Virus record (IMG/VR): IMGVR_UViG_3300019468_000010
Source of the DNA: a virus
DNA length: 41,628 nucleotides
Strand: one strand, 5' to 3'
Positions 24,301 through 27,300 of this stretch are shown here, one piece after another. Under the pieces are notes generated by a model. The model was not told the origin of the DNA and searched no databases. It saw nothing but the letters and a program-made list of their open reading frames with translations. Position numbers and translations under genes: made by a program. How positions within the stretch are numbered: the first letter of the stretch is position 1; every line of letters begins with the position of its first letter.

Positions 24301-27300
24301 TTATTTTTATCTTTCAAATCAAGTTCACGTTCTCTAGCTTGTTCTTGTATTTGCTCCTGTTGTGCTTTTAGGTTATCGATTTCATCATTGGCTTTATCTA
24401 ATTCTTTTGAAACACTTCCTAACTCTTTATCAACTTTTGCTTTGTCTTTTCGTAGCAATTGTTCTTTAGTTAGTTCTTGCTCAATTGGTGCTAGTTCTGC
24501 ATCTAGGTTTTCACTATTTACATCTAGCTTTTGCAACTTATCCAATAATACCCAGTTTTTAGCTAGTTCCTTATTGGTATGTGCTTTAATCAAACGTGCC
24601 TCTTCCTGTGTAAGTTCCATTTGTCCTTGATTGGATAATAACATTTCTTCGGCTATTTCTTGGTTAGATTTTCCTGCGTTCGGATCATTAATAAACTCAT
24701 TTCTAGCGTTTTCCATTTCCTGTGCTACTGCTTCATCGTAAGTACTGCCAGCTTCCTCACGTTCCGCTTTTTCTAACCCCTCAATAGTTCGATATTGAGT
24801 ATTTTCCAATGCACCATCACCCAATGCCATGTATCGTTGATGTTCTTTATAGATAGGATATTCTTCGATTAAACGCTTTTCGATTGCAACCTGTACATCG
24901 TATTTTACATCTTCCCATTCTTTAATAGGCCGATTATCTAACTCTTTCATGTACTTACGCATTACACGTTCTTTAGCTTTTTCTTTAATGTCAGCAATGT
25001 ATCCTTGCACTCGTGCTTGTTCGGTTTCGCTCAATTGTTGGTATAATTTTGTATTTTCAAATTGCTCTAATGCTTGCTCATGTGCGTAGTTTTCAATATC
25101 ATCTTGCGTAGCTATCATGCGTGCCATTATATCCTTAATGTCAGATGGTACTTCACCGCCTAATCGTTGAACACTACGATAAATACGAGTTAACCATTTA
25201 GAGAATTGACGGAATACACGTTGTAGTCCTTTTGTTGGTGCTTCACCACTTCGTAAGTAGCTTTCCCAGCCTCGTGCAAATTTCTCGTGTGCTTTGGTAT
25301 TATCTACGTTTTCACCATCAACCCAACCGCTCCACTCTTTGAGTGCGTTCCAATCATCAAGTAGTTGTTTAGGTGCATCTTCCATAGATGCTAGTTTTTG
25401 AATATCATCAAAGAATACATGGCCCATTTCATGTAAGAATGTACTTCTATCTGCTGTTTTGAAAATGCTGATAATGCGTTCACCATCTTTCATGATTTCT
25501 GTCATGCCATTAACAGACTGGTTGTACTTTTCAATAACTTTGATTGCTTTATCATCGAACACTACAAAATTATGACTAAGACCATGTTTGTATTTAATCC
25601 CTTTTATACCTAACTCGTTTAATTTAAGAGATGCGTTTTTGTCACCACCTAAACGTTCTGACAAATCATTATAAAATTCCTTACCAGTTTTATTAATGTC
25701 AGTCAGATCTAATTGTTTTATTTTGTTTAAAACATATTCCGACTGTTCGTTAATTGGTTTTGAGTAATCTAACATTGTGTCTGTATCTGGAATTTCAACA
25801 TTATATAGTGTGGGTTTGTAAACAGAAGTCACTTCAAAACTATCAATATTATCAATTAGATATGAAATTTTCGAAACGATATCATTATAAAAAATATAAT
25901 GTTTCTTGTATCTGTTCTGCAACTCCTCAATAACATCAAATAGATATTCTTTATTCACTCGTTTGTTATCAGATTTAGCTTTGGTTTTAGCATCGTTTAA
26001 TATAACAGTTGCCATTCGTTCAAACTTATTATCAACAAGTGTTGGTAGTTTACTAATAGCAAATTTACTGTTTTGTGTTATAAAATCTAAAACACCATCT
26101 AATTCATTTAGGTTTTTAGTAACTATATCTAAATTATTTTGCTCATCCTCTCTATGAGAAGTTAAGCGTTTTAATAGAGTTTCTTTGTTATTCTCTACAT
26201 TGATACCACCAAATATTTGATTAATAACAGGTGCATACTCAATCGGTATATCATTACCATTTAAAGTAAATTTATTTTTAGATTTACGCTCTACTTTATA
26301 TTTTTCAGCTACATTTTTGTTTTCAGTAAAATATAGCCCCCAACCAAATGCTTGTGTTCCTAAACCACCGCCGATACTACCCAAATCAAATTCATCAAAA
26401 TCATATGGTGAACCATGCCATGCGGATTGATAATATTGATAATTATGTTTCTTTCGGAGCTTGTCTAAATCATTTTCGTTTGGTATACTATTAATAATAT
26501 TAGACCAACTAACACTCATTTGTCCGCTTGATTGGACGTTATTGACTGTTAGTTGGTTTATTTTTTTTGTATTAACATATAACAAATCGCCATTATTTAT
26601 CGCATTAGAGTACCATGTAGTATTAACTCTAGGGAATATACTTTTAACCCTAGTTTGATAGCTATTTCTTCCGCTTTGAACATCAAAAACCAACGGTACA
26701 TGAACAAGGTTATTTTGCGTATCTCTTAATTCAACAACGGCCACAATTTCACCTTTTACCGATGCATTAGCAACAGGGTCAAAGTTTTTGAATATTGCAA
26801 TCGGATTAGATAACGCACCAGGTAACTGTTTCATAACATTTAAGTCAAACTTATGTGCATGCTTAGTGGCAAATACTTTATTAAGCATTTTCGTTGTTAT
26901 ATAAACATCACCAGTTGTAAATTTGTAGTCAGGATCTTTAATTGTGCTAAACACTAAAGGTGCTGACATTATTTTATTTACACCTTGTTTAAGCGTTCCG
27001 TTTTGTAAATCGTTTAATATTTTCCCCCATTGAGTTATATCGGCTTGTAATTTTTGATGCATTGCCAATTGTTGTGCATACCCTTTTTGGTTTTCTAAAA
27101 CCGCATCCATTTTGATACGCACGCTATCACGCAAATAATCCATAGCGGTATACCCGCCTTTGCCCATTTGTCGCATATATTGTGCCATTACATCAGCATG
27201 TTGTGCCATTAACAACGCATTAGCTTTTGCCGTTTCACGTTGTTTTCTATCGGTACTTTCACCAATCGCTCTAACAACTTTGTTGTACACTTCATAGCCA

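Follow-up and report, generated by a model that had tools for sequence, protein, structure and literature searches.

A predicted polyvalent-type ADP-ribosyltransferase domain, split by a helical insertion, in the putative ejection protein of a T7-like phage

Polyvalent proteins are large multidomain phage proteins in which unrelated effector domains are joined, typically together with MuF or MuF_C and a zincin metallopeptidase (Iyer et al., 2017; PMC5512222). Among the protein-modifying domains found in polyvalent proteins, ADP-ribosyltransferases (ARTs) are the most frequent, and their injection has been predicted (PMC5512222, PMC9503650). The active site described for their family ART-PolyVal consists of a His on strand 1, a Tyr on strand 2 and an Asp on strand 5 (Iyer et al., 2017; PMC5512222). 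Here, a domain of this type is described in the IMG/VR virus record IMGVR_UViG_3300019468_000010, a stretch of 41,628 nucleotides (the window). The domain is encoded on the minus strand within a giant open reading frame (ORF) of 2,820 amino acids (aa). The most fitting reading is that of a new member of the known family ART-PolyVal (PF18760), the Tox-ART-HYD2 clade of Iyer and Aravind.

ARTs from several other described systems are used for comparison below. AcrIF11, a mono-ART from phages, contains a helical region that is variable (PMC12421852). ParT is an active ART with an R-Y-N triad, in which E52, located between motifs I and II, and H56 are essential (PMC8120803). PARPs of the H-Y-I/L/Y type are listed as mono-ARTs (PMC7955679), and T4 Alt is a mono-ART that is packaged in the capsid, is injected together with the DNA and modifies host RNA polymerase and other proteins (PMC5512222).

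The minus strand of 25527-26444 is translated as NYQYYQSAWHGSPYDFDEFDLGSIGGGLGTQAFGWGLYFTENK...GIKGIKYKHGLSHNFVVFDDKAIKVIEK. The peptides quoted in the initial annotation, which had proposed a PARP-like ART signature inside a giant virion protein, were present in this translation, whereas the plus-strand frame of the same segment contains many stops. The residue numbers given there for W1118/H1119, Y1147 and N1401 were correct, and the two motif halves are indeed separated by ~250 residues.

When the native protein was compared with PF18760, the alignment stopped at profile position 50, because the insert of 150 aa breaks it. A core of 163 aa, obtained by in silico removal of aa 1167-1316, scored 39.8 bits on PF18760 (E=1e-9), the alignment covering positions 10-136 of the 140 in the profile, and the profile was matched by all 26 cores tested from the clade of homologues described below. 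The clade core was also aligned by hhalign with 14 compact classical ART-PolyVal copies, which were taken from the same set of giant proteins as the clade profile search, and this resulted in a probability of 98.2% and E=3e-14 over 142 aligned columns. Both halves are therefore regarded as one ART-PolyVal-type domain that is split by an insertion. A homologue search yielded 106 proteins with E-values between 1e-230 and 1e-4, many of which already carry PF18760, and a search from a classical copy (the N-domain of P0030) yielded 2 proteins only.

The alternative families were matched less well. The Pfam matches of the native protein to DUF3990 and PARP were weaker than that to ART-PolyVal, and no match to the DarT or Tpt1/PTS_2-RNA families was obtained in Pfam or among the top structural matches. 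For PARP (PF00644) the scores were 12.2 bits for the native protein and 18.4 bits (E=0.0016) for the insert-deleted core, both below the cut-off of 26.7. The parallel with PARP that had been drawn from the sequence nevertheless holds for the HGS...GxGxYF motif, which is common with tankyrase, and for the register of beta5, which fits the sub-threshold profile match. The proposal that the module is of the polyvalent-protein type was supported by the PF18760 and hhalign matches, by structural matches to ART-PolyVal-like proteins (see below) and by the MuF_C domain found immediately upstream.

Indeed, the surroundings of the ART domain within the giant ORF are those of a polyvalent protein: it is large, it contains MuF_C and ART followed by an HExxH motif, and its gene lies within the structural module. 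The HExxH motif (HEMGH) was read from the translation, and at the equivalent position the homologues P0002, P0005, P0009, P0018 and P0020 carry an 'ST..HE..H' motif. When the remainder of the giant protein was scanned with Pfam, MuF_C was the only significant match, and the HEMGH region was not detected by them. Judged from its sequence, HEMGH is probably the zincin-type metallopeptidase module of polyvalent proteins. The coordinates of all these features are listed in the table.

Table. Features of the giant ORF and its ART domain (window coordinates, minus strand; aa numbering of the giant ORF)
Feature	Residues	Coordinates	Strand	Description
Giant ORF, host of the ART domain	2,820 aa	21309..29771	(-)	Position of T7 gp16 (internal virion/ejection protein); from ORF list, translation and synteny
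MuF_C (PF18819)	970-1073	26553..26864	(-)	Directly N-terminal to ART; E=2e-17, 63.6 bits, cut-off 27.6
ART domain, N-terminal half	1110-1166	26274..26444	(-)	beta1 with H1119-G-S-P, GGGLGTQ loop, beta2 GWGLY1147F, helix with Y1158
Loop Leu	L1137	26361..26363	(-)	Codon TTA; near-invariant Glu in the clade (GxGEGxQ)
Helical insertion, ~150 aa	1167-1317	25821..26273	(-)	Between beta2-helix and beta3
ART domain, C-terminal half	1318-1420	25512..25820	(-)	beta3 LYNVEIP, two helices, beta4 GIKGIKY, beta5 SHN1401FVV, D1406-D1407 turn, beta6 IKVIEK
Motif III (catalytic Glu/Asp) position	N1401	25569..25571	(-)	On beta5; from alignment with the Glu of classical copies
Acidic pair at end of beta5 (VVFDD)	D1406-D1407	25551..25556	(-)	Best-conserved acidic pair of the C-terminal half; candidate 'H-Y-D' Asp
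HEMGH (HExxH)	1447-1451	25419..25433	(-)	Read from the translation; ~30 residues past the ART domain

The fold was assessed on two AlphaFold2 models. The model of aa 1105-1425 (25497-26459, minus strand, 321 residues) had a mean predicted local distance difference test (pLDDT) of 77, with core blocks above 90. Its elements are arranged in the strand order of ARTs: beta1 (with H), beta2 (with Y), a helix, the helical insert, beta3, helices, beta4, beta5 (with N1401) and beta6, with beta1 and beta2 at model residues 10-17 and 42-45. Long helices were predicted between the two halves at model residues 106-163 and 170-203 (pLDDT 56-74), which agrees with the claim that an insert splits the domain. 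The insert had been described as K/N-rich and helical; its helical nature was reproduced by the model, but its enrichment is only modest (N 11.9% and K 9.9%, compared with 6.8% and 8.0% in the whole protein). The top Foldseek match of this model was 9k3a_B, a chain of the cyanophage A4 pre-ejectosome, with a non-significant E=0.19; in the model, the helical insert may resemble ejectosome helices.

As the insert dominates Foldseek searches with the first model, a compact natural homologue was modelled. The corresponding segment of P0005 shares 44% identity with the core and is free of a long insert, and its AlphaFold2 model reached a pLDDT of 90.4 and a predicted template modelling score (pTM) of 0.85. 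All 50 of the 50 PDB matches listed for this model are ART folds. The best was AcrIF11 (6kyf; E=1.2e-4, probability 1.00), and MbcT (6fkg), tankyrase-1/2, PARP15/12/4, the RES toxins 6gw6, 9r35 and 8gug and cholix toxin were found as well. Among the predicted viral structures in BFVD, matches with E~1e-14 and template modelling (TM) scores of 0.63-0.77 were obtained to proteins named 'ART-PolyVal-like', 'PolyVal ADP-ribosyltransferase' and 'large polyvalent protein associated domain' and to a phage-like protein of Burkholderia phage Bp-AMP4. In phage AMP1, which is related to Bp-AMP4, the matching region is annotated as putative internal virion protein. The ART fold, whose absence would have spoken against the assignment, was thus recovered in the P0005 model, and the model of aa 1105-1425 has the elements in the same order.

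The conservation pattern was studied in the homologues. H1119, G1120, Y1147 and Y1158 are invariant in 66 homologues, with H1119-G-S on predicted strand 1 and Y1147 on predicted strand 2. The initial annotation had pointed to an Asn at 1401 where a Glu is expected, and as a matter of alignment this is true: N1401 aligns with the Glu of classical copies (QEVVVFD, SEFVVFE), hhalign places it on the consensus 'e', and its register mirrors that of E-Y-I-V-Y-D in PARPs. In 65 close homologues this position is mostly N (38), C (14) or A (10), and the 189 domain copies from both searches have N in 141, C in 29, A in 14, S in 2 and G, Q or L in one each. The Asn is therefore nothing special about this protein, being the consensus of a huge clade. 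It is not a local oddity. The real departure of this copy, which had been missed, is the replacement of a Glu in the beta1-beta2 loop by L1137.

With the clade profile, 20,127 clusters (50% identity) were found at E<=0.001, of which 12,214 at E<=1e-30; the majority are proteins with a length of 1,000-7,000 aa, in which several copies are often present. The members share the signature HG[ST]P ... GxGEGxQ ... GxGxYF ... variable helical insert ... LYxVxIP ... GIKGIxY ... N-[YF]-V-V-F-D-D. Natively, members such as P0005 and P0009 score only ~20-24 bits on PF18760 and thus fall below the cut-off. Classical copies often have an acid at or beside the N1401 position (GDVVAY, GGDIYVAF, REVVAF). In the clade, the only conserved acids of the C-terminal half are D1406/D1407 directly after strand 5: at residue 1406, 148 of the 189 copies have D and 29 have N, and at residue 1407, D or E is present in 140. 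From this alignment D1406 is a candidate for the Asp of the 'H-Y-D' site of the family. Since Asn at the PARP-Glu position is the norm of the clade, a PARP-like catalysis driven by that Glu is excluded.

Both types of domain can also occur together. The giant proteins P0117 (aa 598-791 and 1054-1420) and P0120 (aa 850-992 and 1261-1595) each carry a classical copy and a divergent copy with Asn and loop Glu, and these proteins score 134-144 bits on PF18760, summed over three stretches of each giant protein. Their co-occurrence in one sequence suggests functionally distinct paralogues.

The beta1-beta2 loop of the clade reads I-G-T-G-E-G-A-Q and has no counterpart in the classical copies in the hhalign alignment. 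Its Glu was found in 61 of the 66 homologues and in 191 of 214 further copies. The ParT precedent and the RES-type structural matches make it plausible, by analogy, that this loop Glu is a relocated catalytic acid. Since ~10% of the clade copies have a non-acidic residue (Q/T/A/V) at this position, the Glu does not seem to be absolutely required for retention of the domain.

Compared with its classical relatives, the domain is homologous over both halves and has HG[ST], GxGxYF and the strand order in common with them. It also lies, as they do, in a giant phage protein beside MuF_C and a zincin-type motif, for which a head-packaged, injected effector is predicted. Classical ART-PolyVal copies are compact (~130-150 aa). 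Their strand 5 usually begins with E, D or Q, and their ending is F-x-P-x-QIKS. The domain described here belongs to a sub-clade with N, C or A at that position, in which D1406-D1407 follow strand 5 and are conserved, and it differs from the classical copies by the GxGEGxQ loop, the long variable helical insert and the VVFDD ending, besides its own loop Leu.

AcrIF11 (6KYF, 8DWQ) is the solved structure that is most similar to the P0005 model, with TM scores of 0.45-0.56. Like the domain described here, it is phage-borne, with a small ART core, a poorly conserved helical region that is thought to recognize the target and an H...Y donor site (H20/Y46 in AcrIF11Pae2). However, there is no detectable sequence similarity, AcrIF11 depends on an essential catalytic Asp/Glu pair (D115/E116 or D146/E147), and it is a small, free-standing protein that is expressed after infection and is not part of a virion protein. 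With the PARPs, the domain has the fold in common, as well as ~30% identity over ~55 residues to tankyrase around HGS...GxGxYF (Foldseek), and the PARP register E-x-x-x-x-D corresponds to N-F-V-V-F-D; the H-Y-I/L/Y PARPs also do without the Glu. In contrast to PARPs, it scores below the PF00644 cut-off, has no regulatory or helical domain and no catalytic Glu, and it belongs to a bacterial virus and not to a eukaryote.

The insert is the variable part of the domain. Across the clade, the span from motif I to GIKGI ranges from 131 to 439 aa with a median of 224, and is 270 aa here. In a comparison with a 96% identical relative, 13 of the 14 aa differences were located within aa 1184-1240 (26052-26222, minus strand), inside the insert. 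This corresponds to 1 difference in 160 residues of the ART core and 13 in 151 residues of the insert (Fisher p=6e-4). The cores differ by 7.5 synonymous and 1.5 non-synonymous changes, with an omega of 0-0.08. In the patch of aa 1184-1240, synonymous (dS) and non-synonymous (dN) divergence were 0.43 and 0.13 (omega 0.29). Positive selection on the insert was rejected because dS is raised there as well as dN, and the patch looks like a mosaic or recombined segment.

The position of the giant ORF was deduced from its neighbours. On the minus strand, the structural module is ordered as terminase, portal, major capsid, tail tubular A/B, internal virion protein (phrog_418), an ORF of 723 aa, the giant ORF and tail fibre/spike. 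The C-terminal 920 aa of the giant ORF resemble large structural-module proteins of phages of ~40-47 kb, among them Bbp10 of Bordetella phage BPP-1 and proteins of Pseudomonas phage AF and of Caulobacter, Xanthomonas and cyanobacterial phages, and aa 1915-2731 match phrog_9880. Gene order and this shared C-terminal region place the giant ORF at the position of the ejection protein gp16. In the metagenomic contig L001 (ERZ28585966 scaffold_307), which is 91-95% identical to the window, the neighbours of the giant gene match Pfam T7_Gp13 (faintly) and T7_gp14 (weakly). The gene order therefore fits that of T7, in which gp16 follows the gp13-, gp14- and gp15-type genes and precedes the tail fibre. 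The flanks of the ART domain in the giant ORF had no sequence homologues in PDB and did not match solved ejectosome proteins, and in a megablast search with the giant gene nothing was matched among 50,697 phage records.

Combining these results, the reading preferred here is that of a head-packaged, injected mono-ART of the polyvalent type that binds nicotinamide adenine dinucleotide (NAD+), to which we give about an even chance; mono-ADP-ribosylation or some other NAD-dependent chemistry had been suggested in the initial annotation as well. Beyond the observed homology, fold, conservation pattern and genomic context, we infer that the capsid would carry the giant protein, which would enter the host by ejection during infection. 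There, the ART domain would bind NAD+ at the conserved donor site of H1119, S1121 and Y1147 and might transfer a single ADP-ribose to a host target, which would help the phage to become established. The variable helical insert would probably aid target recognition, by analogy with the helical region of AcrIF11. The acid would probably come from the loop Glu, as in R-Y-N enzymes of the RES/ParT type, and/or from the VVFDD aspartates, and the HExxH module beside it may serve to process the polyprotein, a role proposed for polyvalent proteins (PMC5512222). The retention of all donor-site residues (H, G, S, Y, Y and Q1140) is consistent with retained function. T4 Alt serves as functional model for such a packaged enzyme; however, its ART clade is another one (R-S-E, Alt/VIP2), and it does not form part of an ejection protein.

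Several observations weigh against this reading. The native protein scored only 22.2-26.9 bits on PF18760, below the cut-off of 31.2 and with the N-terminal half alone (profile positions 10-50). Foldseek of the insert-containing model against PDB gave only matches with E>0.1, although many of those listed are ART folds. No biochemical characterization of ART-PolyVal members was found in the searchable literature. The ORF of the giant protein was confirmed as claimed, but its designation as a virion protein is based on synteny and not on proteomics, so that for this phage presence in the virion is predicted from the genes. Motif III lacks an acid, D or E being found at the N1401 position in none of the 189 copies, and in the loop of this protein, GGGLGTQ, the Glu is replaced by L1137. 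The sequence is thus without two of three candidate catalytic acids, those of motif III and the loop. Two changes would be needed to turn the Leu codon TTA into any Glu codon, and the independent contig L001 has TTA as well. With Leu at the loop-Glu position, the activity of this copy may be weakened or altered.

It is accordingly conceivable, if less than probable, that the domain, although truly homologous to ART-PolyVal, has lost catalysis in this copy and is kept as a folded spacer, as a structural part of the ejection protein or as a module that binds NAD or a target. Such a pseudo-enzyme would account for the Leu at a position where ~89-92% of copies have Glu, for the Asn in motif III and for the beta4-beta5 hairpin KHGLSHN, which lacks the D/E-G found in many relatives. 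It would agree with the essential role of the Glu between motifs I and II in ParT (PMC8120803), and inactive ART folds are known to persist, as in PARP13 and TASOR (PMC7955679). On the other hand, the NAD-site residues named above are all kept, D1406/D1407 are intact, and purifying selection is seen in the core when it is compared with the insert, though a role in binding would fit this as well. The clade copies without loop Glu also speak against a dead copy, as do H-Y-I/L PARPs, which work without an acid borne by the enzyme (PMC7955679).

A more far-reaching interpretation, which we consider doubtful, is that the GEG/Asn clade forms a distinct enzyme family in which the catalytic acid is no longer on strand 5 but in the beta1-beta2 loop. 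Its H-E-Y-N arrangement would be convergent with RES/ParT, and the copy in the window would be an inactivated or re-purposed ART. It might then act as a sensor or decoy in the ejectosome that binds NAD+ or ADP-ribose, for instance by sequestering NAD-derived defence signals of the host or ART targets without modifying them.

The likeness to RES-domain ARTs and NADases (ParT, MbcT and the RES-Xre toxins) raises another alternative, namely that of an NAD+ glycohydrolase or phosphorylase that depletes or reshapes the NAD+ pool of the host after injection. MbcT and RES toxins are among the best structural matches, and the combination of a Glu between motifs I and II with an Asn in motif III resembles RES-domain proteins, the clade order H...E(loop)...Y...N mirroring R-Y-N plus the essential Glu of ParT. 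However, motif I has the His of the H-Y-x clade and not the Arg of RES, there is no match at the sequence level and no antitoxin partner, and this copy lacks the loop Glu, so that neither the Arg nor the Glu of RES/ParT-type ARTs is present in it and the resemblance is one of structure. The closest relatives in sequence are ART-PolyVal, DUF3990 and PARP, and on general grounds NAD+ depletion would harm the replication of the phage itself. Such an activity is considered unlikely.

Very unlikely is an ART directed at nucleic acids, an option named in the initial annotation, which would modify ends or bases of DNA or RNA in the manner of DarT, Tpt1 or pierisin. ART folds do modify nucleic acids (PMC8120803), and the protein would travel with the ejected genome, but neither DarT nor Tpt1/PTS_2-RNA was matched, and the family was placed beside protein-modifying ARTs by those who described it (PMC5512222). 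Finally, next to no weight is given to a chance resemblance of the H-G-S, GxGxYF and VVFD strings in a large low-complexity virion protein, which would fit the empty single-sequence PDB search and the profile match to tankyrase at E~1 but is rejected in view of the Pfam (E=1e-9) and hhalign (E=3e-14) matches, the thousands of homologues and the confident ART-fold model.

In those PDB sequence searches, the N-terminal half as single sequence gave noise only, and clade profiles matched tankyrase at a non-significant E~0.4-4. The top matches of the clade profiles were engineered five/six-helix constructs of HIV-1 gp41 (2xra, 2cmr, 3ma9; E=7.6e-6 and ~1e-5), with two repeated stretches. They were rejected as a helical or compositional artefact of the variable region that lies between the two halves (profile positions 74-156; 'WMEWDREI', 'LQLTVWGIKQL'), boosted by the repeats of the constructs.

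What happens in the first minutes of an infection is decided by injected phage effectors, and ADP-ribosylation is a weapon that recurs on both sides, as with T4 Alt, AcrIF11 and DarT. The locus would be one more ART module built into an ejection protein, here that of a temperate phage of the T7-like kind. Of more use is the result on the clade: Pfam scores the native members of a very large sub-family below its cut-off. In this clade the canonical acid of strand 5 is never present, and a Glu in the loop is conserved in its stead, which bears on how thousands of uncharacterized phage ARTs catalyze and on whether copies such as this one are still enzymes.

In contig L001 (6993-15240), the giant gene was called as three ORFs (1008, 449 and 1308 aa) and the gene at the gp15 position as two (138 and 579 aa), which may reflect frameshifts, metagenome assembly errors or real disruption. 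The DNA identity between this contig and the window falls past ~nt 5290 of the giant gene. The ORF of 723 aa at the gp15 position in the window (29774-31945, minus strand), a putative internal core protein, had no PHROG match at E<=0.001. The window has 37% guanine plus cytosine and no tRNA genes. On the strand opposite to the structural genes, a tyrosine integrase is encoded at 14749-15804 (plus strand; phrog_1, E=2.5e-63), whose sequence points to a temperate T7-like or BPP-1-like phage or prophage.

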